A DNA stretch of 35,091 nucleotides from a virus (IMGVR_UViG_3300037423_000781:1-35091), one strand, 5' to 3'. Counted from the first letter of the stretch, positions 1 through 35,090 are shown. The notes: a model not told the origin generated them from the sequence alone. Made by a program: numbers and translations.

Positions 1-3000
1 ATGGATCGCTTCGTGATCCAGCACCGCATCCGGGTTCTCGGCGTCGAGCGATACGCTGATCAGCTTGCGGAAGTAGGAGCCGTCGGCGGCGTGCATCTTG
101 CCTTCGACCATGAGGCCGAGGTTCTCGCTGATGCGAAGGCCGATGTCCTTCAGGCCGAGCCGGTCGAGTTCGGCCCGAAGCCGCTTGCCGACGTCCTGCG
201 CTTGGGCGGTAAAGGCGTCGGTTGGCCTGAGTTCTTTGTCGGCAACCTTCAGGCGGATGTTCGGATTATTGGCATCGAAAGCGCCTTGGTTGTTGACGGA
301 TTTGATCTGCGTCGGATCGAAGACCACGAAGCCATATTGGGTGTCCATGCCGTCGAACCCGGCCGCGCGGATGATATCGACGCCCTCGGCTCCCGGAAGT
401 TGGTAGAGCACGTTGTCGCCATTGGCCTTATACGCATGGTCAAAAATGCTGGCGAGTTCGCCTTTCTTGAAGTAGCCGGGATGCTTCTCGTTGGTGGCCT
501 TTTCGATGGCGGCAAGATCGGCTGGCGAGATGATGCCGCGCGCGGGGAACAGCTTCTTCGCGCTAAGATATACCGGCATCACATTTGGACCGGCATTGCC
601 CGAAAGCGTTACGCGGTTGACGTTTTCGCCGGTCGCGTAGTCTGATGCCTGCGCTGGATCTCGCGTGAAATAGAATCCTTCGCCGTAGGCGTTGCCGCCG
701 TCGATGCGGCTGAATTCATCGAAGTCTGACCTGGTCCCATGATAAACGACGAGCGGATCGCCGTTCTCATCAACCACCTCGCTGTCGCCGAACCAGCGTT
801 TGAAGGCTGGCGTATCGGTGATGTCCTTCCGTAGCGAGAAAAGTTCATCCTGCCGCTCGGAACGGGCCTGCCTGTCGAAGAGTTCGCCGGCATCCTTCTG
901 CGGCGCCTTGGCGCGCAACGGCTTGTCTGCCTCACGCTGGGCCTGCTGGCCTTGGGAAATCTTCTCTGCCCCGGGAATGACCGACTGGGGTTTGCCCTCG
1001 GCGCCGGCCTCGACGGTCGGCTGCTTCGGATCTGGCTTTTCGGCGGGCTTGCTCTTGGCCGCCGCATCGTTGGCCTTGTCGACCAGATACTTGAGGACAG
1101 TCGCATCGGCTGCGCCATAGGCAATGCGCGTGCCGTTCGGATCTATCAGCCCAACCTCTTCGCCATCCTTGCGGAAGGTGTAGCCATCCGGCAGCTTCTT
1201 GCCCCACTCGGCGACGATGCTCTCGTGCTTGGCGCTATAGTCCGGCGCCGTGTTCGGCTTGCCGCCGGCCGCGCGGTGGATCGCCTCCGCCACGGCATCA
1301 TCCCATTCAAAGCCCTCGTCGAGAATTTTCATCGCACGGCGGGCCACCTCTGGCGTGACCATGCGGCCATTTGCGCGGATCGGGCCTTGAGGCTTCGCCC
1401 CACCATCTGGCGCAGTCGCCGGCATGATCGAATCGATGATGCTGTCGAGCTTGGTCTGAAGCCGATCGGCGCGCTCGGTGTCGCCGGCCGCGCGCATTTC
1501 GTCGATCTTGCGACCGAGACGAATGGCAATGTCTCTATTGGCAGGCTGGATCGCGTCGAAGGCCGCACGGCCCTCTGCGTTGAAGCCTTGGAGGAAGCTG
1601 GGCGCTACTTCGCCTTTCGGCCCGCTTCCATCCGGTTCAGCGCTTCCAGATTGCTCGCGCTGCGGCGCAGCCTCTCGCGCTGATCCTTCGACAGACCCTT
1701 GCCGATCACGGCCCTGATCCGATGGTTTTTCGCCAGTTGCGACCGCTGGCCCTGCGTCAAATGGGATTTCTTCGTCAAGAGCCTGTTCTCCCTGCCCATT
1801 CATATCTTCCGTCTCATGCTCGATTGCAAGAGACTCGCGCTCGAGCACGTCGACAATGGCCTCGTCCGCCGCCATGCCGCTCGCCATCCGGTCGAGAATT
1901 TCGGAGGTCAGGCTTTCGGTGAGTTGCAGCCCGTGCACCTTCGCCAGGGCCTCGATCTCCTGCTGCTGGCGATCGACCTCTTGCGGCGCCGCGCCCGTGC
2001 CCTGCTCTCCGGCGACATACTGGCGGTTGCCGCGGCGCGTCTCGGCGATCAGATCCAGAAGATCGGCAACCGTCGATTTCTCGGTTGCGGTGGCCCGGTC
2101 GCCGTAGAGATGGTCGAAATAGCCCATCTCGGCCGCGGCCTCTCGGGCGGTGTCGAGCGGCACGCCCTTCTCGCGCATCAGCTTGCCGACGCCAGGAACG
2201 AAGGTCTTGTGCGCATCGATCGCGCGCAGCTCGCCCTTGAAATCCTGTACGCCGCCCTGCTGGGCGAGGAACTGGATGATGTCGCGCGGGCCTTTCTGGA
2301 TGGGCGCATTGCGCTGCCTGACGTCGACCGGCGCCGGCGCGGAAGGTGGTTGACCTGGGACGGCGGTTTCGGGAACCTGGTTTACCGAAGGCGATGTCGG
2401 GCCGGTATAGGAAAGCGGCTGCGTGGTGTCGCCGTTCTTCAGCCACGACTTGAAGCCGAACATCGGCATCTCGGTCACGGCGCCGATCCTCTGTGCGCCC
2501 TTGCCGTCGCTGAACGCCTGCTCGTAGGCCTGCACCGCCGCTTCGCGCGACGGGAAGTCCATCATCACCTTGTGCTCGTCGAACGCCTTGGTGCCGGCGT
2601 CGATCTGGTCGATGACATAGACCTTGTCGCTGTGATGATCGCCGAGATAGGTGTCGACCTGGTCGCCATCGGCGCCACTGGTACGGCGGATGTAGCCGTA
2701 GTGGGCCGGCATGGTGACTTCCCAGGGCTCGGCCGCGCCTGGCTTGGAGCGGCGCGTGCCGCCCTTCTCGTTCTCGATCGAGACATCGAGCCCGTGCACC
2801 TGGACTTTGCGCTTGGCGTAGTTTCCTGCCTCGGCCTGACCCGGCGTCGGTTCCGGGTTGGTCTGCCCTGTGGTGAGGAAGGCATGATCGGGGAGGAGCG
2901 CGGATGCCGGATTTGCACGCGGCATGACACGAAGGCGCGCGGCTTCGTCTGGTTTCAGTTCGAAATTGAACGTGAAGCCCTGCTTGACGCCTTGCTCTGG

Positions 3001-4917
3001 GATATCGGCATTGTTGATGCGTGGGTCATTCGCAGGGATGTCGAGATAATGCAGCGGGAGATCGCTCCGATAGTCGGAAGCATATTTCTGGTTGGTGCTC
3101 ACCCAGCGACCAGAGTCACCTTCGCCAACTGATCCGCTGTGATAGACCCTGACCATTCCTGGCTGCACGGGAGGCGCAGGCGCCGCTTCCGCTACAGCCG
3201 GACCGGCGACAGGCTCCGCGCTTGCTGGCGGGGCTGCTGGATGGCCAAGCGGCGGGATTTCGGCCGCTGGCTCGGTGGCCGCCTGCTTCTTGCCGGCGCC
3301 GAGCGCCTCGTCGAAGATCTTCTTGCCATCGTCGATGAGATCATTGGGCAGCGGCGACGCCCGGTCTTCCGGGGTCAGGCGCGGACTGTTCGGCCGGTCC
3401 TTCTCGACATCGATGGTGGCCGCAGGCGGGGGAGGAGGTCCGCCTGCGGCCGTATCTGCGGACGGGGGAGGAGGTCCACCCGCAGATTCCTGCCCGAAGA
3501 GCGTGTCGGCCGATGCCGCGCCCTGCGGGATACCCTGTTCGGCAATCGGTGGCGCCGCTTCATGCGCCTGGTGACCGGCAGCGGGAGATGCGCCCGCGCT
3601 CATGGTTCCGCCGGCGAGCGCGCCACCAATGGCGTTGTCGATGACCGATACGGCTTGCTGGGCCAGCGTCTTGTCGCCGCCCGCCACGTCGATCGCCGCT
3701 TCCTGGATGACCTGTTGCACACCTTCGGTAGCACCTTCCGTCAGCGCACCGGTGACGACGCGCTGCATCAGGCGCTTGACGATGTTCTGCTTCAGGCCCG
3801 TGGCGTTGAGCCCGACCACCCCTTCCAGCGACGCCGCATCGAGCGCCGCCATGGGTATAGCCGCCTCGGCCGCGATGCTGGCGACCTGCTTTCGGGTGAT
3901 CTTGCCGTCCGCGATTGCCTTCTTCACGCCTTCGTTTTCAAGAAGGGCGCCGTAGGTGTCGCCAAGGTTCTGGACGTAGGACGGGCCGGCGGCGCTGGCG
4001 ATGAAGCCGAGCGGGCTCTTTGTGACTGCCGCGCCAGCCACGCCGGCGGCAAGGCTCGGTGCCGATGTTCCGGCACCTGAGCCGATCAGATAGCCGGCAT
4101 AGTCCGCCGCATCGCTGATCATGTTGGACAGGGAGTCCGTCCTGATCGAGGTGACGCTCGGCACGTTCGGCTGGCGCGTCTCCGCGCCCTGCGCGCCCCA
4201 TGCCTTGACCTGATCGGCGAGATTGCGAAGCGTTTGCGGGGTTTCTTCCATGGGGCGGATCTTGCCGCCCGGTTCGGTGGGGACCATGCGGCCGACGATA
4301 TCGCCGGCATGCGCCGCGCCGCTCGGTTCGCTCAGTTCGGCAATCGCCTCCATGGCGTTGCCGACCATCTGCGGATTCTGGTCGACGAGACCGCTGATGA
4401 AGCCCTTCTTGATCTGGTCGATGAAGCCGCCGCCGCTGGCCGGGGCAGAGCCGCCACCCATGAACTCGTCGTCGCTCATCAGGTCGGAAGCGGGTTTTCC
4501 AGAATAGAAATCCGCCTGCGCGCCGTGCAGCGCCTGCGCATAGGCAGTTGCATCGTCCGGGTTGTCGAACTTGCCGAGGTGCTGGCCGGTCTTGTGATAG
4601 AGGTCGATTGCCGCCTTGTCGTCGAGAAGCTTGCCATCCGGCGAGACAGTCGGGATCAGGATTTCCTTGCCATCTTCCTCGAATGACATCGAACGCACGG
4701 TGCTGACCGAGCCGTCTTCATTCTTGACCACAGGGCGCTTGGCGAGATCGACATTGCCAGGTTCGAGGAGACCCTTGAAATCGCCGGTCGGGGCGGCAGA
4801 GCGCTCGGCTGGCTTGGCTGGCGCTGTCGCGCCGCCCATGAACTGATCATCGTTCAGCAGCGTGCTGCCGCCACTCGCCGGCTCGCCGAGAAACTCATCG
4901 TCGGAAAGCAGGTTCAC
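1..4917 (-). CDS. Large polyvalent internal virion/ejection protein (3'-truncated by window edge, >1639 aa)
   Basis: Hand translation from GTG at 4917 (GTGA overlap with upstream stop) has no stop down to base 1. It begins MNLLSDDEFLG. It contains GNVDLAKRPVVKNEDGSVSTVRSMSF (about 4505-4758), a RVYHSG..WVSTN..YA ART-like module (about 2920-3156), an InPase domain (AGNY..SIENEKG..HYGYIRRTSGADGDQVD..FDEHKVM, about 2420-2850), an ART-PolyVal domain (FKRWFGDS..VVYHGT..GFYFT..VMPVYL..GFDG..VVFDPTQIKS, about 250-820) and HEAIH at 1-15. Confidence 0.92.
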   Translation of the reverse strand, partial: MNLLSDDEFLGEPASGGSTLLNDDQFMGGATAPAKPAERSAAPTGDFKGLLEPGNVDLAKRPVVKNEDGSVSTVRSMSFEEDGKEILIPTVSPDGKLLDDKAAIDLYHKTGQHLGKFDNPDDATAYAQALHGAQADFYSGKPASDLMSDDEFMGGGSAPASGGGFIDQIKKGFISGLVDQNPQMVGNAMEAIAELSEPSGAAHAGDIVGRMVPTEPGGKIRPMEETPQTLRNLADQVKAWGAQGAETRQPNVPSVTSIRTDSLSNMISDAADYAGYLIGSGAGTSAPSLAAGVAGAAVTKSPLGFIASAAGPSYVQNLGDTYGALLENEGVKKAIADGKITRKQVASIAAEAAIPMAALDAASLEGVVGLNATGLKQNIVKRLMQRVVTGALTEGATEGVQQVIQEAAIDVAGGDKTLAQQAVSVIDNAIGGALAGGTMSAGASPAAGHQAHEAAPPIAEQGIPQGAASADTLFGQESAGGPPPPSADTAAGGPPPPPAATIDVEKDRPNSPRLTPEDRASPLPNDLIDDGKKIFDEALGAGKKQAATEPAAEIPPLGHPAAPPASAEPVAGPAVAEAAPAPPVQPGMVRVYHSGSVGEGDSGRWVSTNQKYASDYRSDLPLHYLDIPANDPRINNADIPEQGVKQGFTFNFELKPDEAARLRVMPRANPASALLPDHAFLTTGQTNPEPTPGQAEAGNYAKRKVQVHGLDVSIENEKGGTRRSKPGAAEPWEVTMPAHYGYIRRTSGADGDQVDTYLGDHHSDKVYVIDQIDAGTKAFDEHKVMMDFPSREAAVQAYEQAFSDGKGAQRIGAVTEMPMFGFKSWLKNGDTTQPLSYTGPTSPSVNQVPETAVPGQPPSAPAPVDVRQRNAPIQKGPRDIIQFLAQQGGVQDFKGELRAIDAHKTFVPGVGKLMREKGVPLDTAREAAAEMGYFDHLYGDRATATEKSTVADLLDLIAETRRGNRQYVAGEQGTGAAPQEVDRQQQEIEALAKVHGLQLTESLTSEILDRMASGMAADEAIVDVLERESLAIEHETEDMNGQGEQALDEEIPFDAGPAVATGEKPSDQGRDRQGSVEGSAREAAPQREQSGSAEPDGSGPKGEVAPSFLQGFNAEGRAAFDAIQPANRDIAIRLGRKIDEMRAAGDTERADRLQTKLDSIIDSIMPATAPDGGAKPQGPIRANGRMVTPEVARRAMKILDEGFEWDDAVAEAIHRAAGGKPNTAPDYSAKHESIVAEWGKKLPDGYTFRKDGEEVGLIDPNGTRIAYGAADATVLKYLVDKANDAAAKSKPAEKPDPKQPTVEAGAEGKPQSVIPGAEKISQGQQAQREADKPLRAKAPQKDAGELFDRQARSERQDELFSLRKDITDTPAFKRWFGDSEVVDENGDPLVVYHGTRSDFDEFSRIDGGNAYGEGFYFTRDPAQASDYATGENVNRVTLSGNAGPNVMPVYLSAKKLFPARGIISPADLAAIEKATNEKHPGYFKKGELASIFDHAYKANGDNVLYQLPGAEGVDIIRAAGFDGMDTQYGFVVFDPTQIKSVNNQGAFDANNPNIRLKVADKELRPTDAFTAQAQDVGKRLRAELDRLGLKDIGLRISENLGLMVEGKMHAADGSYFRKLISVSLDAENPDAVLDHEAIH
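1605..1799 (-). CDS. Candidate 64-aa basic protein nested out of frame inside the polyvalent gene
   Basis: ATG to TAG. By hand count 53 of 64 codons end in G/C, versus about 29 of 65 in the host frame over the same bases, where the host protein is a low-complexity linker. Confidence 0.55.
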   Translation of the reverse strand: MGRENRLLTKKSHLTQGQRSQLAKNHRIRAVIGKGLSKDQRERLRRSASNLEALNRMEAGRKAK

Positions 4918-24027: not shown

Positions 24028-24774
24028 CTACATCCCTGCCCGGCTGTCTGCTGCACGAAAGGCTGCGACGGAAGGCCCGGCAGACGGCAGCGACGCCACC
24101 TTGTCCCAGGTCATCCAGAGGTAACGCATGGTGTCCATGAGGTGGTCGTTCTTCTTCACGACGGCTCCGTGCTCGTCGCGACGGTATACGCGATACTCCA
24201 TCTTGAAATGCTGAAGCGTCTTGAAAATCTTGAGCCGGCCGAGCGCCAGCGCCTGCCAGACCTGTTCAAGCCCGGTGGCTTGCTCATTGTTCGCTGGAAT
24301 GAGTTTCAGCTTGCAAGGCTCGCTCTGATACTCCGACATCATTTTGATCCCGTCGCGCTGTCCGCTACCTGCGGAAGCAGGATCGATGCAGCCGCGAATC
24401 CAGTCGCCGCGCGCCCTGATCGCCGCGGCATGGATGATCGGCAACTGCTGGCCCTGGTAGTGCTCGGCATAGAGATAGATGACGCCGGTCGCCGGATCCT
24501 GCGCGCCCCAGATGGCGGCGGTGCGATTCCAGCCGACGTCGAGTGCATAGCCGCGCTTCCAGAACTTGCCGATCGGGAACGGGTCGACCTCGATATCGGA
24601 GATCGGGATCGGGTAGATGGCGCCGGCGCCCATGGAGGGCTCTCCCTTGGTGCGGGCATCACGCAGCCATGGCGGCGTGGCGGCGAGCAGCTCGGCCTGT
24701 GCCTTAGGATCGATATGCGGCACGTCCTGCCAGCCCGCCTGCACGACATACTTGGATGAGGAGATTTCAGGCAT
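24028..24774 (-). CDS. terL: Terminase large subunit, C-terminal part (lid + RNase H-fold nuclease, 248 aa)
   Basis: ATG 24774 (TGATG coupling); WQDVPH..RDARTKGEP..GAIYP, ALDVGWNRTA, IDPAS, KNDHLMDTMRY (P22 gp2-type). Confidence 0.9.
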   Translation of the reverse strand: MPEISSSKYVVQAGWQDVPHIDPKAQAELLAATPPWLRDARTKGEPSMGAGAIYPIPISDIEVDPFPIGKFWKRGYALDVGWNRTAAIWGAQDPATGVIYLYAEHYQGQQLPIIHAAAIRARGDWIRGCIDPASAGSGQRDGIKMMSEYQSEPCKLKLIPANNEQATGLEQVWQALALGRLKIFKTLQHFKMEYRVYRRDEHGAVVKKNDHLMDTMRYLWMTWDKVASLPSAGPSVAAFRAADSRAGM

Positions 24775-25379
24775 CAGCCCTTCATCTCGCCCATCTTCTG
24801 CATCATCTCGCGACGGCCGGGAGGCGGATCGCCCATCAGGCTGGCGGTGACGTTGCGCTTCGGTTCCGCCGGCTGAGCCTTCAGCGGTGCATCGCGCGGC
24901 TGCTCGCCGGAAAACAGCTTGGTGACGCCATGCGCGGTCTTGATGTTGGCGACGCCTCCGGTGGCCTGCTTTCTCGGCGCCGTCTCGTCGGCCCATTTCG
25001 GCAGCACGATCTCGATGAAGCCGTTTGAGTTTTCGACCGGTTCCCACTTGCACCATGCACTCGGCTCCGAGCGATTGACGAAGGCGGCCTGGTGGCCGAG
25101 CTTGATCAGGAAGAAACCGCCCTTGCCGGTGGTGCGCTCCTCGGCCTTGGTGTTGGCGGCGCTGTTGTTCTTGCGCAGACGGACGAGGCCGTGGTCATCG
25201 CCCTCTCCGATCATCACCTCGATGCCGTCGCCATTGCCGATGTTCGCCTGCTTGGCGACAGAGGCGTTGAGGCTCAAGGTGATGGCGGCTGGCGATGCCT
25301 TGCCCTTGCGCAGGCTGCACTTGATGCCGGTGCCGACGCTGGCCGGCTTGAACTCGATGGTGGCTTTGACGAATGCCAT
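24774..25379 (-). CDS. Hypothetical protein, possible AbrB/SpoVT-like fold
   Basis: GAGGAG RBS; ITLSLNASVAKQANIGNGDGIEVMIG..LVRLRK resembles a swapped-hairpin pattern (tentative). Confidence 0.65.
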   Translation of the reverse strand: MAFVKATIEFKPASVGTGIKCSLRKGKASPAAITLSLNASVAKQANIGNGDGIEVMIGEGDDHGLVRLRKNNSAANTKAEERTTGKGGFFLIKLGHQAAFVNRSEPSAWCKWEPVENSNGFIEIVLPKWADETAPRKQATGGVANIKTAHGVTKLFSGEQPRDAPLKAQPAEPKRNVTASLMGDPPPGRREMMQKMGEMKG

Positions 25380-25627: not shown

Positions 25628-26839
25628 CTACGCAGTCATTGCGACGAGTTCGGCATCGGTGAAGGTGAGGTTCGGACTGATCGCGAACCGCTCATTGATG
25701 CCGTAGATTGAATTCTGTCCTGCGCCATTGGTGCCAAGGTCGAAGTGGTCGAGCGCGACTTCAAGCGTTGCGTCCGTGTCGAGGTTTCCGAGCACGCCAT
25801 TGGCCGCCACTTTGATCTGGCCAGATCCGCTTGGACCGGTCACATATCCGGCAACCTTGTTCACTTGGTTGAGCCCGACGCGCCACACACCGTCAGCCGT
25901 CTTCGACAGGCCCGGGCCGTTGGAGAACTTTACCGCGCCGCCGGCGCCGGTAGCATCGACCGAGCAGAACAGGTTGGTTGCGCCGGTGATGATGAAGCCA
26001 CCCGTTGCCCGCTCGCTGCGGCCTTGCCAGTAGAAGGCAAAAGCGTTCTGCGCCACGCCGATGATCGGGCCAGCGTCGGCGATGTCGGCGCTCGGACGCG
26101 ATTGCGAGCCGAGGATCGTGGCACTGGTCGTGGCTATGCGGTACTGGGTTCGGACGTTGAGCGAGTTGGGCGGGTTCGAGTAGATGTTGACGAAGTCGGC
26201 GTCGATGGCATCGCCAGCGGTCTGCAGCCTGATGCCGACAACCGGGTTCGTGACAGCCGCCTGGACCGCGACGACCTGCGAATAGACACCGGCGCCCGGC
26301 GTGACCGCGAACCAAGTCGTGCCACCATCGACTGTGACATCGACGCCACCTGTACCAGTGATGCGCTTCAGATCCATCTGGATGAGGATGGTCGACGAGG
26401 CCAGGGTGATTGTCTGCAGCCACGTCGCGTTCGCACCGGTCGCCGTTAGGCGCGTCGCCGCATTGGCAACGCCGTCGGCACCGGCGGACGTCTTGGCCGC
26501 CGTGCCAAGGCCACCACCGTTGACCCAGACGGCATTCGTCAGGTCGCGCGCCCACAGGTTCCTGCAGGTGCCATACGACGGGTACTGGTAATGGCCGGCG
26601 TCCGTGCGCCGCAAGCCGGAACTGGCCTGCAGAACCAATATACCGGACGCATTCGGGATGTAGGTAGCGGTGATGTTGTTTGGGTCGCGGAAGGCCCGGC
26701 CGTCGTTGTTGTTGTTGCCATATGGCTGGGTGACACCCTTGGCGGACGGTGTCATGAAGTCGATATCGTATTGGAACCGCGACAGTGGCGGGCCAAGATT
26801 GCCCACGCCCATTGTGGCAAAGAAGAGCGCCTGGTCCAT
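25628..26839 (-). CDS. Putative head fibre/spike with carbohydrate-binding-like beta-sandwich domains
   Basis: 403 aa Gly/Thr/Ala beta-rich; RNL..DLTNAVW..ATRL module followed by a LamG-like C-terminus (NKVA..AANG..LGT..TDAEL). Confidence 0.62.
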   Translation of the reverse strand: MDQALFFATMGVGNLGPPLSRFQYDIDFMTPSAKGVTQPYGNNNNDGRAFRDPNNITATYIPNASGILVLQASSGLRRTDAGHYQYPSYGTCRNLWARDLTNAVWVNGGGLGTAAKTSAGADGVANAATRLTATGANATWLQTITLASSTILIQMDLKRITGTGGVDVTVDGGTTWFAVTPGAGVYSQVVAVQAAVTNPVVGIRLQTAGDAIDADFVNIYSNPPNSLNVRTQYRIATTSATILGSQSRPSADIADAGPIIGVAQNAFAFYWQGRSERATGGFIITGATNLFCSVDATGAGGAVKFSNGPGLSKTADGVWRVGLNQVNKVAGYVTGPSGSGQIKVAANGVLGNLDTDATLEVALDHFDLGTNGAGQNSIYGINERFAISPNLTFTDAELVAMTA

Positions 26840-27537: not shown

Positions 27538-28338
27538 TCAATCTCCAAATCCCGGCATGAACTGCATAACAGTTTCGGTCAGGCCTTCCAACGGCGTGAA
27601 GGTCAGCATGATGATGCCGCCGGTGGTGGCGGTGCGGATCAGGCATTCGCCGTAGATGTCGAGCGGGCATTCCTCGTCGAGCCAGATCAGATGGCGCGCC
27701 GTGCCTTCGAACGAGCCGCGCTTCTGCTCATAGGCCTTGAGACCCAGCCGCGACCAGCCGCCCGACACATGCTTGACCAGGATGGAATCGACCAGGTCGT
27801 CGACACCGCGCTTCCAGATGATGCGGCCGATCAGGTGCGCGGGGATCATGCCCTTGCCGGCGAAACCCTTGCGGCCGTCGTCGGTCTCGTATGTCACCTC
27901 GCCCAGCAGAGCGTTCTGCACGATGTCGCGCGTGGTCTCGTTGGCCTTGCCGCAGGCCCAGGCCGAGATCGGAGCGTCGAAGCGCCGGCCTTCCCACCAG
28001 TAGGGATAAAGCCCGGTGAGGTGCGCCGTGGTGGCGTAGGCGCCCGCCAGCGTCTTGCCGACGCGGTTCGCGGCGAGGAAGCATATCTCGCGATAGGTGG
28101 CGCTCGCCTTGAAGAACTCGATGTGCTTGGCATAGCGAGCCCTGGCATAGATGACGCGGCCGTCGGCCTGCACATTGTCATTGTCGGGGAAGAGATCGAA
28201 GAACTGGCGGCGGCTCTGGCGCCGGTTCAGCGCGGCCAGCAATGCGGCGAAGCGCTCCTGGCGATCGCGCGGCCACATGGCGAAGGTGGCGGCGTCGACG
28301 TCCTGCAGCAGTTCCGCGGTGGATGGCAGGGCGTTCAT
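27538..28338 (-). CDS. terL: Terminase large subunit, N-terminal ATPase part (266 aa)
   Basis: ATG 28338 (ATGA coupling); Walker A AANRVGKT, Walker B LIWLDEE, coupling motif LTFTPLEG, then a stop 13 codons later. Confidence 0.92.
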   Translation of the reverse strand: MNALPSTAELLQDVDAATFAMWPRDRQERFAALLAALNRRQSRRQFFDLFPDNDNVQADGRVIYARARYAKHIEFFKASATYREICFLAANRVGKTLAGAYATTAHLTGLYPYWWEGRRFDAPISAWACGKANETTRDIVQNALLGEVTYETDDGRKGFAGKGMIPAHLIGRIIWKRGVDDLVDSILVKHVSGGWSRLGLKAYEQKRGSFEGTARHLIWLDEECPLDIYGECLIRTATTGGIIMLTFTPLEGLTETVMQFMPGFGD

Positions 28339-28811
28339 GTCGGCGACCGCTCGAGGATATGCAGGCGCTTCTGCGTGAGCCCGGCGAACGTCCAGCCATC
28401 CTGGTAGAAAATGTGCCCCCACGTCGGGCGGCTGGCTCGGAAGGTTGGTGAGACGCCAAGCGGATCGACGAAGGTAAACAACCGCTCACCCGGCCAGCGC
28501 TGCCATGCCAGTTTCCTCGCCTCGCCCAACAGCGGGATAGCCTCCTCGCCGCTCTCCCGGCGATAGATGCAGCATTCCACGCCGACTTGCCCGTCGCGCC
28601 GGTGCTTTTCCTTGCGCCACGCGCACAGCGCGCCGCCATCGGCCGTCAGCAACAGATATTTCTCGCCGGGACCGATGATGAGTTCATTGACGCGCCGACC
28701 GGCAACGCGCGGGCGATAGCTGTAGTGCCGCTTGAAGATGTCGCGCGCGGTGTCGTTGCCGTCGAGGACTTCGACCCAGCCTTCGCCGATGAGGAAGGGC
28801 TGGACGTTCAC
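28335..28811 (-). CDS. Mom-like GNAT-fold putative DNA-modification protein
   Basis: RHYS near the N-terminus and LFTFVD..GHIFYQDGWTFAGLT resemble Mu Mom-family motifs; coupled at both ends. Confidence 0.58.
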   Translation of the reverse strand: MNVQPFLIGEGWVEVLDGNDTARDIFKRHYSYRPRVAGRRVNELIIGPGEKYLLLTADGGALCAWRKEKHRRDGQVGVECCIYRRESGEEAIPLLGEARKLAWQRWPGERLFTFVDPLGVSPTFRASRPTWGHIFYQDGWTFAGLTQKRLHILERSPT

Positions 28812-30211: not shown

Positions 30212-30673
30212 ATGACCGGCATTGAACTCCCCAACGACGAGGACGAGGTGTCCTTCGCTCCCGCTCCGTCGCCTGAAGAAGCGCGGGCGCGGCTCGCGGC
30301 GCTGCGGGGGAAGCCGCTCGACGGGCCGAGCCGGTTGGTGACTGAGCCTGAGGTGGTCAAGGCTTCTGAGGAAGGTCTGACGCTGCGGCCGACCGCTCCG
30401 GCCGACATGGTCAGCCTCGAACTGCCTGCCGACAAGATGGCGCGGCTCATGGCGCTCCTGGAAAACGAAGAGCCGAAGGCAGAGCCGCAGAAGCCGGCCA
30501 GCGCCGTGAAGAAGGCCGACAGCCCGTTGTTCAAGGCGAAGAAGGTGCGCATCACCACGCGCATCGATGCCGACGTGCTGGAAGCCTTCAAGGCTGGAGG
30601 CGATGGCTGGCAGACCAGGATCAATGATGTGCTGCGCGCGAACATGCCTAGTGCTCCAACAGCCGAAGATTGA
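30212..30673 (+). CDS. BrnA-family (ribbon-helix-helix) antitoxin-like regulator
   Basis: KVRITTRIDADVLEAFKAGGDGWQTRINDVLR C-terminal signature; GAGAGG RBS; no BrnT-like gene upstream. Confidence 0.85.
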   Translation: MTGIELPNDEDEVSFAPAPSPEEARARLAALRGKPLDGPSRLVTEPEVVKASEEGLTLRPTAPADMVSLELPADKMARLMALLENEEPKAEPQKPASAVKKADSPLFKAKKVRITTRIDADVLEAFKAGGDGWQTRINDVLRANMPSAPTAED

Positions 30674-31296: not shown

Positions 31297-31881
31297 CTAC
31301 ACCGCTCCGACATTGTGGCCGTGCTGCATGATCAGGCCAGCAGGACGGCACAGATACTGGATTGCGCTTTGCATCAACTCTTGGCTGTCTCTGAAGCAGC
31401 CAAGGCCCATGTTGCAGTGGTGGCAAAGCAGACCGCGAATTTCGCCGGTCTCATGGTCGTGGTCGATGAACAAATGCTTTGCGCGCGGGCCTTGCTGTGG
31501 CTTTCGACACACCTCGCATCGCCCGTCGCTTCTTGCGAGTAGAGCCTGGTACGTCTCAAGCGAAATGCCGTAGTTATCGAGTAGCTTCTTGACTCGAATG
31601 GCTTCGCGGTTCTTGGCGCGCCACGCTTTCCCCTTTTCGGAGTGGGCCTTACGGACAGCAGGATCCTCGGCATACCGCTGGCGTTTGTAGACTCTCTGCG
31701 CGGCCTGAAGTTTGTCTTTGTTCCGCGCCTTGTAGCGCCGAACTATTTCGCGCCGCCTCTCTGGATTCTTGGCAGCCCACTCCTTGTCAGCAGCGTTCTT
31801 GCGCGCTTTGTTATCGTTGTACCATTGCTTGCGCCGCTCGCGACCGCGCGCCTTCGATGCTTCTGAACGCACGTAGGCCAT
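31297..31881 (-). CDS. Endonuclease VII-family nuclease (probable free-standing homing endonuclease)
   Basis: Basic helical N-terminus, YGISLETY..CEVC..IDHDHETGEIRGLLCHHCNMGLG..AIQYL. Confidence 0.9.
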   Translation of the reverse strand: MAYVRSEASKARGRERRKQWYNDNKARKNAADKEWAAKNPERRREIVRRYKARNKDKLQAAQRVYKRQRYAEDPAVRKAHSEKGKAWRAKNREAIRVKKLLDNYGISLETYQALLARSDGRCEVCRKPQQGPRAKHLFIDHDHETGEIRGLLCHHCNMGLGCFRDSQELMQSAIQYLCRPAGLIMQHGHNVGAV

Positions 31882-32781: not shown

Positions 32782-34263
32782 TCACATCCTATTGAGGAAA
32801 CTCATCTCTTCCTGGTCGATCTCGGTCTGCGGCTCGACGGATTCCAGCAGCGTGAACTTGGCGTTGAAATCTAGCGTCTCGCGAATGTTGGTCGGGCCAA
32901 AGCGCACCTTCAGCGCGCCGATCTCGGCAATGTCCTTGCCGCCGTCGCGGACATCTGACGGGAACACACCGCTGTTGATGATCTTCCAGTCGGCGTTGGT
33001 GGCGGCGGTCGCCTTGCGCTCGTCGAGGAACTTCTTGAAGCGGTAGAGGTAGAACACCGCGTCGTAGGATTCCTTCGTGCCCTCGCCGCCGAACAGGTCG
33101 GATGCGATCGGGCGCGGGTTCGGGCGCTGCATGCCGGCCGTGTTGCGCTGGTTGAGCATCAGCCATGCCGCCCCGACGGAATTGGCCCCGGCCTTCAGGA
33201 TGCCGTTGATGGCGCCGGCCTTGGTGCCGGGGTCGGAGCGTTCCGTGCTGCGCTCCGGCGTGATGCGCTTGATGTGGTCGGTGACGATCAGCGTCAGCCG
33301 CTCGCCGGCATGGCGGCGCTTGAAGGCGCGGGCATAGCTCACAAGCTGCGGCGCACCCTCCATGGTGCATTTGACGACCTCGAAGGGCTGCTGGTCGATC
33401 CAGTCGGCGAAGGCCTTGGCGTCCATCCACTCGGATTGGCTGAGGTCGCCGAAGCGCTGCCGCCTGGCCTCGATGCGATGGCGCTGCGCCACCATCTGGC
33501 GCACGATCTGCTCGGCAGACTGGTCATAGGACTGGAACTGCACCGCGCAGCCGGCGGCAAGGGCATGGTAGACGAGTTGCACGGTCAGACTGGTCTTGCC
33601 TTCGCCAGAGCTCGATAGCAGGCCGTAATAGTTGCCGATCTCGAAGGACGGCTCGGAGATGACGCGCTGGATTTCCTTCAGGCCGATCGGAATGCCGATC
33701 ACGGATCCGCGCTCCTTGGCCGTCTCCATGTTTTCCAGGTAGTTGCGGCCGGCGCCGCGGCGGGTTTCGGCCTTGACGCGCATGCCGCGCAGTTGCGCCA
33801 TCCTGTCTTCGAATTCCGAGCGCTCGCCGATGACGTCGACGCCGGGCGGCGGGTTGTAGGCAAAGGAGAGGAACTCGGTCGCGGCGACGATTGCCTGTCT
33901 GGCAAGCCATGCCTCATGAACGGCTATGGCGATGTCGCGCGCCGCCATTGTGCCGATGGCGGCCGATGCCAAGGTGACGAGATATTGCAGCACCGTCATG
34001 TCGCCGATCTTGGCGTTGGTCGGCAGGTAGGTTTTCACCGTGATCGGGGTTGCTATCTTGCCCATGCGGATCAGTTCCCCGCAGACCAGGTAGATGCGCT
34101 GGTGCAGAGGCTCGAAGAAATGCTCTTCCTCGAGGAAGGTCGCCACGCGGTCGAACGTGCGGTTGTCGATGAGGATCGCCCCCAACAGACCCTGTTCCGC
34201 TTCAATGTTACTCGGCAGTTCGCCAAGCACATCGCGGAGTTTGCTGCGAAGATTGTCACTCAC
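32782..34263 (-). CDS. dnaB: DnaB-like replicative helicase (divergent)
   Basis: NIEAEQGLLGAIL..HFFEPLHQRIY N-domain; Walker A SGEGKT; VTDH; NQ; RP..SDL; KVRFGPT. Confidence 0.88.
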   Translation of the reverse strand: MSDNLRSKLRDVLGELPSNIEAEQGLLGAILIDNRTFDRVATFLEEEHFFEPLHQRIYLVCGELIRMGKIATPITVKTYLPTNAKIGDMTVLQYLVTLASAAIGTMAARDIAIAVHEAWLARQAIVAATEFLSFAYNPPPGVDVIGERSEFEDRMAQLRGMRVKAETRRGAGRNYLENMETAKERGSVIGIPIGLKEIQRVISEPSFEIGNYYGLLSSSGEGKTSLTVQLVYHALAAGCAVQFQSYDQSAEQIVRQMVAQRHRIEARRQRFGDLSQSEWMDAKAFADWIDQQPFEVVKCTMEGAPQLVSYARAFKRRHAGERLTLIVTDHIKRITPERSTERSDPGTKAGAINGILKAGANSVGAAWLMLNQRNTAGMQRPNPRPIASDLFGGEGTKESYDAVFYLYRFKKFLDERKATAATNADWKIINSGVFPSDVRDGGKDIAEIGALKVRFGPTNIRETLDFNAKFTLLESVEPQTEIDQEEMSFLNRM

Positions 34264-35090
34264 GGTCTCTCCGCCATCATCCGAACAAGGCGAGCTGCGC
34301 CGGCGGAGCCGCGCTCGGCGAGGCGAGTTGCGAGAGTGCGGAACGCATAGCCGCCTTCCAGCGGGACAACGCCGTTGCCGAGCATGCGAAGTCGGTCCAC
34401 CCGGGAGGCCAGCCCATCAGCCACTCGACGAACAGCGGGTTCAAGGTGCGGCGCTCGGTCGAGGACGAGACGCCATGTGTCGAGGTCGTGGGGTCCGGGA
34501 GGGAATAGAGCAGGATTGCATCGTTCAGCGTCACCCCGTCGTGATGCTTGCTGTTCGGGTCCGAGCGGCCAGACGTCCGATTGCGCGCCCCGTTGCTGTC
34601 CGTCACCGCAGGTGTCGGCCTGGCCGACACCTTTTCCGAGACAATCGGCGCCAGCCCCTTCAGAAGGGGCTCGTTCGCTCGATCCCCCGAACGCGACATC
34701 CTGCCCCCTGTCGTATCCGCCACCGATGGTGTGGGCCACTGGAATGCTTGCGACGGCAGCGGCAATCCTGCCCCGTTCCGGAAGCTCTGGTTCGGGCCGC
34801 CCTTCTCGCCATCCGTCGCGCGAGGCGTCGACCAGGTCGACGCCTGCCAGATGTGTTCCACGAAGTTCGGAAGCTGATCGAGATGCAGTCGCCCGGTACC
34901 GTTCTTCAGGTGCTCGGGGCCATTCGCTCCCTTCTCGTCCCTGACCGAAGGCGTCGGCCAGGCCGACGCCTGAGATGCCGAGGATGAAGATGCGCTCCCG
35001 CTCGTGGCTCGCGCCAACTTCCGCCGCCGTGAAGAGTCCTCCCTCAACCGCGAAACCCAGCTTGCGAAGGTCTCGCCAAACTCTTTCCGC
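34260..35090 (-). CDS. C5-cytosine DNA methyltransferase, alpha-type frame (5'-truncated by window edge)
   Basis: Frame is open from 35090 by hand translation: LRKLGF..FTAAEVGASHERERIFIL (motifs VII-VIII) through RLRMLGNGVVP (motif X). No motif IX in this frame. Confidence 0.88.
   Translation of the reverse strand, partial: AERVWRDLRKLGFAVEGGLFTAAEVGASHERERIFILGISGVGLADAFGQGREGSEWPRAPEERYRATASRSASELRGTHLAGVDLVDASRDGWREGRPEPELPERGRIAAAVASIPVAHTIGGGYDRGQDVAFGGSSERAPSEGAGADCLGKGVGQADTCGDGQQRGAQSDVWPLGPEQQASRRGDAERCNPALFPPGPHDLDTWRLVLDRAPHLEPAVRRVADGLASRVDRLRMLGNGVVPLEGGYAFRTLATRLAERGSAGAARLVRMMAERP
34277..35089 (-). CDS. Overlapping beta-type methyltransferase polypeptide (TRD-like repeats + motif IX)
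   Basis: Second frame is also open to the window edge. Four W(P/S)TP/RPTP..D repeats and RTLNPLFVEWLMGWPPGWT (motif IX-like). True start not determinable. Confidence 0.75.
   Translation of the reverse strand, partial: RKEFGETFASWVSRLREDSSRRRKLARATSGSASSSSASQASAWPTPSVRDEKGANGPEHLKNGTGRLHLDQLPNFVEHIWQASTWSTPRATDGEKGGPNQSFRNGAGLPLPSQAFQWPTPSVADTTGGRMSRSGDRANEPLLKGLAPIVSEKVSARPTPAVTDSNGARNRTSGRSDPNSKHHDGVTLNDAILLYSLPDPTTSTHGVSSSTERRTLNPLFVEWLMGWPPGWTDFACSATALSRWKAAMRSALSQLASPSAAPPAQLALFG
34610..34971. repeat. Three perfect 23-bp palindromes AGGYGTCGRCC-W-GGYCGACRCCT
   Basis: 34610-34632 AGGTGTCGGCC-T-GGCCGACACCT; 34823-34845 AGGCGTCGACC-A-GGTCGACGCCT; 34949-34971 AGGCGTCGGCC-A-GGCCGACGCCT. Confidence 0.95.

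Follow-up and report, generated by a model that had tools for sequence, protein, structure and literature searches.

We believe, at a probability of roughly 0.6, that the perfect palindromes at the cassette junctions of a phage methyltransferase gene are scars of template switching at a recombination seam, inherited with the cassettes beside them, and not the sites at which those cassettes are shuffled. The gene lies at the end of the window, by which we mean the whole stretch of 35,091 nucleotides that was analysed. To judge from the sequences compared, the exchange point is the 12-bp WxTP block of each junction and not the palindrome. An earlier note on this DNA had read the palindromes as recombination or template-switch sites; template switching stands as the best-fitting source of their symmetry, but the view of the palindromes as the shuffling sites does not.

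The window is a single phage contig with head, portal, terminase, DnaB, DHH and endonuclease VII genes and, since its closest named relatives are mostly rhizobial, the phage likely has an alphaproteobacterial host. Two separate ORFs (24031-25056 and 27538-28422), with other ORFs between them, match terminase large-subunit families as nuclease-like and ATPase-like parts, and a BrnA-like antitoxin (30212-30673, plus strand) is coded in the opposite sense to the remaining genes. On sequence evidence, the gene that holds the palindromes is a predicted phage C5-cytosine methyltransferase read in two frames, like M.EcoHK31I (Table 1). Its catalytic-chain (alpha) frame is truncated at the 5' end by the contig end, and the window holds motif VIII onwards only; it matches PF00145 over residues 4-40 (E = 0.0016, 18.3 bits, under the curated cut-off of 22) and four PHROG DNA-methyltransferase families (best E = 4e-13). 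The second (beta) frame matches the DNA methyltransferase family phrog_1008 (E = 8e-18) and has 1395 relatives at E<=0.001. Full-length relatives contain G-x-P-C-Q, match TIGR00675 at an E of 4e-14, which is under the cut-off, and also match M.HaeIII/M.HhaI. What we take to be motifs VIII, IX and X are named by C5-methyltransferase conventions. Both frames are open in 120 of 128 relatives, alpha reading on through motif IX, and the frame offset is the same in 124 of the 128.

Table 1. Coordinates of the methyltransferase frames, motifs, cassettes and junctions in the window.
Feature	Position	Strand	Remarks
Alpha (catalytic-chain) frame, split C5-cytosine methyltransferase	34260..35090	-	Open frame; PF00145, PHROG
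Beta (second) frame	34277..35089	-	Open frame; serine-rich N-part, four WxTP cassettes, motif IX
Motif VIII region HERERIFILG	34977..35006	-	Alpha frame, inside PF00145/TIGR00675 match
Palindrome, junction 1	34949..34971		11-1-11, reads QASA-WPTP
Cassette 1 (WPTPSVRDEKG..., cluster 6)	34835..34960	-	18 copies, 12 different upstream neighbours
Palindrome, junction 2	34823..34845		11-1-11, reads W-QAST-WSTP
Cassette 2 (WSTPRATDGEKGGP..., cluster 0)	34739..34834	-	67 copies, 29 different upstream and 25 downstream neighbours
Plain junction 3	34727..34738	-	WxTP block without mirror arm
Cassette 3 (WPTPSVADTTGGR..., cluster 2)	34622..34738	-	31 copies, 17 different upstream neighbours
Palindrome, junction 4	34610..34632		11-1-11, flipped centre, W to R, KVSA-RPTP
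Cassette 4 (RPTPAVTDSNGARN..., cluster 20)	34508..34621	-	7 copies, 4 different upstream neighbours; ends at degenerate terminal junction YSLP
Motif IX RRTLNPLFVEWLMGWPPGW	34397..34453	-	Beta frame; aligns with single-chain Shauna1 gp67 stretch
Motif X RVDRLRMLGNGVVP	34341..34403	-	Alpha frame; PHROG methyltransferase matches, residues 217-244 and 158-256

Here the exchangeable modules, which are conserved, belong to the beta frame; single-chain relatives have them in the reading frame of motifs VIII and IX. P0021, a database protein, is a frame-fused form in which motifs I-VIII run directly into the cassette array and motif IX; the fusion may occur naturally or may stem from a frameshift in the assembly. 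Gp67 of mycobacteriophage Shauna1 (L399:751-2118) is a single chain with three LLPTP repeats between motifs VIII and IX, one of which is homologous to window cassette 3. Because P0021 joins motifs I-VIII to the repeats and Shauna1 gp67 carries its repeats between VIII and IX, the cassettes occupy the position of the recognition region and, from that position only, are likely target-recognition domains. An AlphaFold model of P0021 (49-row alignment) had a pLDDT below 50 over most cassette residues, and a Foldseek search with the model matched the catalytic fold only. The Shauna1 gp67 gene also contains an extra out-of-frame cassette resembling window cassette 2, as if it were the remnant of a two-frame ancestor. 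At two further loci (L099 and L118, ~1100-2100) one frame encodes the cassettes together with motifs IX and X, and a second frame the catalytic motifs, an M.AquI-like split with two palindromic junctions.

Our array set of 399 sequences (398 fetched loci and the window) yielded 235 arrays, 189 of them unique, with 743 junctions. As the earlier note had expected of homologues, cassette number and order vary: the cassettes group into approximately 255 sequence clusters, a rough number that includes 173 singletons, and 179 of the 189 unique arrays are distinct combinations of 1-8 cassettes. The shared exchange block is 12 bp long (TGG NNN ACN CCN). Conservation at junctions is limited to positions 0 to +10, and in pairs of arrays that share a cassette (159 upstream-only and 579 downstream-only pairs) identity drops to background beyond positions 0 to +11; it is this drop across the block that marks it as the exchange point. 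The earlier note had proposed to look for breakpoints at the palindromes; the crossovers map to the 12-bp block of the junction. The further claim, that the palindromes drive the shuffling, is not supported, since 503 of the 523 junctions from protein-fetched loci are without a palindrome yet shuffled, the commonest palindromic cassette has 12 upstream partners among 14 palindromic copies compared with 13 among 16 plain ones, and one palindromic junction retains its two cassettes in 9 of 11 loci.

The geometry described in the earlier note is accurate for all three window palindromes, with 11-base arms, centres at 34621, 34834 and 34960, and spacings of 213 and 126. On the minus strand, all three centres fall on the opening base of a WxTP W codon in the second frame (W44, W86 and R157), and each upstream arm is an inverted copy of the 11 bases that come after this base; the copy at R157 has indeed become AGG. 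What had been taken for a single arm at the fourth repeat (34738) is merely the ordinary WxTP block of a plain junction, which has a mirror arm of 0, 2 of 11 mirror matches and a folding energy of -1.2 kcal/mol, whereas the palindromes fold at -11.5 to -13.0. Across all 35,091 bases of the window, these three alone have arms of at least 10 around a 0-1 base centre; order-3 Markov copies of the window (n = 40) contained a mean of 0.1 arms of at least 10 and none of at least 11. The next-longest, a 9-1-9 palindrome at 34653-34671, belongs to the same gene; this fourth-longest of its kind in the window lies inside cassette 3 over the PLLKGL codons. The CCWGG core is not independent evidence, because symmetry about a TGG codon forces it.

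Aligned with plain loci (L009, L138), the palindrome at junction 1 adds 15 bases to the plain first junction, and that at junction 2 adds five codons, a leftover W codon first (42 aa versus 37 in plain relatives). At the family rate, three palindromic junctions of four in one gene have a probability of ~0.0002, and hence independent scars alone do not explain the window. All three palindromes share a rare T at +11, which suggests that one ancestral arm spread along the array and was then re-mirrored; this would explain why three of the four junctions are palindromic. Elsewhere in these phages, inverted repeats built on TGACACC/GGTGTCA recur (window 26731-26754; flanks of loci L026 and L133).

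Palindromic junctions are rare across the family, numbering 20 of 523 (~4%) in 131 loci fetched by protein, with arms of 7-16 bases and none of 5 or 6; a few N-terminal pseudo-junctions remain in the totals of 523 and 743, and the filtered palindromic count is 20 of 492. With junction halves swapped at random the rate was ~0.06%, and none of 98 identical blocks outside arrays exceeded an arm of 2. The earlier note held that the arms co-vary, and this is borne out by a pattern with four free pairs, which was symmetric at all four in 21 of 21 gene-linked matches as against 9 of 101 unlinked ones. When the outer bases were left free, 58 of 69 matches in IMG/VR lay in these genes, with arms of 7-19 and a mode of 11; the metagenome pattern scan took in 20 of 64 parts. 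The 84 palindromes represent 35 distinct arm sequences, and every arm is the mirror of the block beside it, be it WPTP, WSTP, WATP, WVTP or WLTP. In the unbiased set, 17 of 22 inverted repeats with an arm of at least 9 in 72 kb of arrays centre on the T of the W codon, the comparison being 1 such repeat in 67 kb of the upstream part of the same genes and 27 in 225 kb of neighbouring ORFs; in the arrays as a whole, 81 of 114 inverted repeats with an arm of at least 8 have the exact one-base centre. Plain junctions showed no more pre-existing quasi-symmetry than shuffled halves did, and a search for tandem WxTP-WxTP precursors found none apart from one palindrome.

Arms tend to end at 11 bases: 69 of 75 reach 11 and 27 of those 69 reach 12, in a set partly fetched with patterns that fix 11. 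A requirement for CT at +10/+11 was considered and dropped, as the +11 base varies when the outer bases are free (G 21, T 16, A 11, C 6). T at +11 is found in 11 of 20 arm-11 cases, a largely rhizobial group, in 62 of 484 plain junctions and in none of 15 longer arms, an enrichment best read as shared descent. The palindromes occur in rhizobial, betaproteobacterial and acidobacterial records, always in frame, and are present in isolate genomes such as the complete chromosome CP147996 (L148). On a quick tree of 127 catalytic chains their distribution is scattered and requires 17 changes, at least 4 of which are forced by strong branches. Other symmetric elements accompany them. Three loci (L256, L332 and L393) have a mirror-image type with a CCWGG core, in which the inverted copy follows the block (WPTP-W/R-ASA) and the centre lies 12 bases past the T of the W codon; L122 has a likely imperfect precursor of this type with a 5-base loop, and L397, counted among the +12-centred cases, is a mis-assigned ordinary palindrome. 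Junctions of L380 and L122 hold off-axis perfect repeats (15-4-15 and 16-6-16) resembling ordinary fold-backs, and further perfect inverted repeats with arms of 10-14 and loops of 2-5 lie off the junctions in L189 (~2600-3050) and in the L059 array.

How the palindromes arise and change can be followed between relatives. They usually start out as an in-frame insertion, an inverted copy of the block placed immediately ahead of it: of 45 palindromic junctions that could be compared, 27 carry 3-6 additional codons, whereas 261 of 348 plain controls carry none (p = 1e-18). A leftover aromatic codon stands five codons upstream in 13 of 82 palindromic junctions, versus 27 of 654, although many of these share descent. 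Their centres invert, as the earlier note had surmised: AGG centres occur in 24 of the 84 palindromes and at no true plain junction, L099 and L118 differ in 421 bases by the centre base alone, and L370 and L381 show the same flip at 94% identity, all read from assembled consensus sequences and not from reads. Their arms are also remade in place. The junction from cluster 0 to cluster 8 keeps its length while its arms, 11, 14, 14 and 16 bases long, differ in sequence, and close copies of one cassette differ by mirrored GCG/ACG, GTG/ACA, GGG/ACC and TTG/CCA changes. They travel as well, cluster 3 having a palindrome in 14 of 30 copies with 12 different upstream partners. Five hits to orphan arms included one (L359) that is not a real junction; the other four are orphan-like upstream arms that no longer match their own block, and the arm in L139 mirrors another cassette type. 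In L007, the palindrome was lost through a deletion between short direct repeats. Finally, one-off cassette pairs make up 20 of 34 palindromic versus 100 of 282 plain junctions (p = 0.014).

Mirrored arms, centre flips and re-mirroring at standing junctions together indicate that the symmetry is made by inverted DNA copying, and two signatures of template switching, mirrored changes within a lineage and spacer inversion, are present. In the excerpted accounts, template switching homogenises the arms of inverted repeats and inverts their spacers, also within genes (PMC8604942), and these two effects are the marks of polymerase template switching (PMC8604942; PMC5941160). We propose that cassette exchange would itself be ordinary short-homology recombination by phage or host. 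The edge of homology would be the T of the W codon, so that a DNA end or flap would form there; a growing strand that switched onto this end or flap and copied to its end would leave a one-base centre and an arm of about block length. Later switching between the arms would keep both perfect, with selection on two overlapping proteins acting as a filter. As the upstream arm resembles a WxTP block, crossovers 15 bases upstream may carry the arm to new neighbours, which would account for the T at +11 in all three window copies. The cassettes would serve as target-recognition domains in a multispecific enzyme by which the phage shields its DNA against restriction.

The exact one-base centre and the sharp arm end at 11 are only partly explained by such copying. 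The stop at 11 may reflect the block, a codon boundary under selection, and shared descent. Fold-back events in yeast, as excerpted, need inverted microhomology and leave long spacers (PMC11724301); both this and the lack of pre-existing inner symmetry at plain junctions count against the scar reading. The mild excess of one-off cassette pairs is compatible with a scar and with a hotspot alike, and one-base precision, a sharp end at 11 and one-off pairs would likewise be expected from a cutting enzyme or a selected hotspot.

The first of these, a dedicated junction-processing enzyme such as a nickase or hairpin-forming recombinase that would be encoded elsewhere on the phage or host and cut at the T of the W codon to exchange cassettes, we regard as doubtful. 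The palindromes would then be occasional products of hairpin opening, like the P nucleotides of V(D)J recombination, which would suit their one-base centres, an arm end close to one helical turn, their origin as insertions at the crossover block and the occurrence of both T and A centres. However, half of the block positions are freely variable and the arms run from 7 to 19, palindromes do not cluster within loci (12 of 202 additional junctions, p = 0.12), and no gene family is enriched in the 1.2-2.5 kb flanks of 72 palindromic versus 117 loci: among 1972 clustered flank ORFs the lowest p was 0.025, uncorrected and in the opposite direction. A recombinase is also absent from the 32 PHROG-scanned proteins (29 other window ORFs), the genome upstream being missing from the contig, and as regards site-specific recombination in general, no linked recombinase was found in the 1.2-2.5 kb flanks or the scanned window proteins. 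A structured site of the shufflon or integron type at every exchange point was rejected as a candidate, with only 20 of 523 junctions palindromic. The boldest version, to which we assign the same low standing as to the enzyme itself, is a programmed, V(D)J-like assembly of recognition domains, in which an enzyme would cut each cassette where its W codon starts, by way of a hairpin or 12-base staggered intermediate, and would put together multispecific methyltransferases out of hundreds of cassettes shared by phages as far apart as rhizobial ones and mycobacteriophages; its P-nucleotide signature would be the 11-1-11 palindromes, and the T/A flip would switch single specificities on and off.

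It is rather unlikely that the palindromes are a selected hotspot, that is, chance copies kept because their hairpins attract breaks (by SbcCD or phage endonuclease VII) and raise exchange. Stable hairpins are predicted by folding, the window has an endonuclease VII gene (31297-31881), L007 looks like a hairpin-deletion product, one-off neighbours are commoner at palindromes, and with some cassettes the palindrome persists (14 of 30 and 11 of 12 copies). Nevertheless, cluster-3 cassettes have equally diverse partners whether or not they carry the palindrome, the cluster-0/8 junction keeps its two cassettes together, 96% of junctions manage without a palindrome, and endonuclease VII genes are unlinked to palindromic arrays in the flanks examined.

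We hold it to be very unlikely that the methyltransferase itself, bound or trapped on a target in the block (GGCC, GTCGAC or CCWGG), stalls the fork and so causes template switching in cis. Trapped Dcm stimulates template switching in E. coli, but the excerpted study trapped the enzyme with 5-azacytidine (PMC6357072). The CCWGG cores of the +12-centred palindromes (L256, L332, L393) and the confinement of the remaining long perfect repeats in the unbiased arrays to two loci would fit this idea; against it, the inner arms differ (GGCC, GGTC, GGGT, GGGC, GGCT) with no one shared site, and CCWGG is forced by TGG-centred symmetry.

RNA hairpins, acting in pausing or in frameshifting between the two frames, and operators for a dimeric protein were the alternatives that the earlier note had named; both fit poorly, and we judge them highly improbable. 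The elements can fold, and there are Rfam frameshift-hairpin matches, albeit weak (24-25 bits against a threshold of 40). But the symmetry extends through three loop positions that are unable to pair, G-U substitutions are absent within the arms and account for the first mismatch in only 9 of 82, a slippery heptamer lies upstream in 0 of 79, and no terminator was found; an operator would not be expected to vary freely while staying mirrored (35 types), and neither function suits elements that only some 4% of junctions have, and not always the same ones. Chance, a codon bias that favours Ala-Ser-Ala ahead of Trp-Pro-Thr-Pro, or an artefact of assembly is negligible as a general explanation. Although GCG TCG GCC are common codons and L021, whose arm is 9 and which has gained no codons, may be an instance, an arm of 11 arose in 0.07% when codons were redrawn for unchanged amino acids, and the palindromes are present in isolate genomes including CP147996, always in frame and with 35 arm types.

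The scar reading combines elements for which precedents exist singly, namely a split C5 enzyme, arrayed recognition domains and template switching. M.EcoHK31I is a two-chain C5-methyltransferase in which an alternative frame inside alpha encodes the beta chain and, within it, motif IX, according to the excerpted reports (PMC2836561, PMC3404938); as there, the window family has motifs I-VIII and X in one frame and motif IX in an overlapping one. In those excerpts, however, the predicted recognition domain of M.EcoHK31I is in alpha, only motif IX is in beta, the specificity is single (YGGCCR), and neither a cassette array nor palindromes are mentioned, in contrast to the 1-8 exchangeable cassettes of the beta frame in the window family. 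The window enzyme would thus work like the split M.EcoHK31I layout without being the same enzyme type.

Trautner and colleagues are said to have described, in 1996, multispecific C5-methyltransferases of the Bacillus temperate phages SPR and phi3T. The multispecific enzymes of Bacillus phages are single-chain, with few tested domains. The window family resembles them as a phage-borne orphan with tandem modules between motifs VIII and IX, as seen in P0021 and Shauna1 gp67, and differs from them in its dual-coded array, its ~255 clusters, its apparent exchange at a 12-bp block and a specificity that is so far putative. Another account, as excerpted, has Bacillus phages arraying several recognition domains in one enzyme (PMC12707154).

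For the palindromes themselves, templated insertions at breaks or flaps in yeast offer one parallel: as far as the excerpts go, these are inverted duplications of 5-34 bp beside a DNA end, they are joined with little homology and they can be lost by slippage over a hairpin, but they are eukaryotic, need inverted microhomology, have spacers of tens of bases and show no tie to domain exchange (PMC11724301, PMC13334657). Quasi-palindrome correction, as in the Ripley model, is another, sharing arm homogenisation, spacer inversion and repeated events in coding DNA; its excerpted cases are scattered and perfect an existing repeat (PMC8604942; PMC5941160). In contrast, the window-family palindromes recur at one base of one motif family-wide, have a one-base centre and start as an insertion. 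In Helicobacter domain movement, hsdS shufflons and integron attC sites, modules are exchanged at short shared sequences. The exchange of specificity modules at such a sequence is common to these systems and to the present family; unlike hsdS shufflons or integrons, the latter has no linked invertase or integrase, most of its seams are not hairpins, and its cassettes are in-frame parts of a protein. We found no description of the palindromes or of WxTP arrays in the literature covered, which excluded most subscription journals and the 1990s work of Trautner. Nor did that literature yield the combination seen here, in which an array coded in two frames draws on hundreds of cassettes and its seam repeatedly acquires an inverted duplication that is exact to the base.

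The palindromes pinpoint, to one base, where the members of a widespread family of phage methyltransferases swap their likely recognition domains. They also constitute an unusually sharp natural hotspot, with inverted copying far more frequent than in the coding DNA nearby, in which the W/R flip is a built-in reporter of how intermediates of short-homology recombination are processed in bacteria; if a dedicated enzyme does lie behind them, it would represent a new diversity-generating system. The cassettes form a natural library of ~255 short candidate recognition modules in near-free combination, compared with the handful tested in Bacillus phages, and the code that relates module to target could be read by expressing a few dozen genes. 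For temperate phages, the exchange of such modules is a likely route by which protection against restriction is re-tuned.
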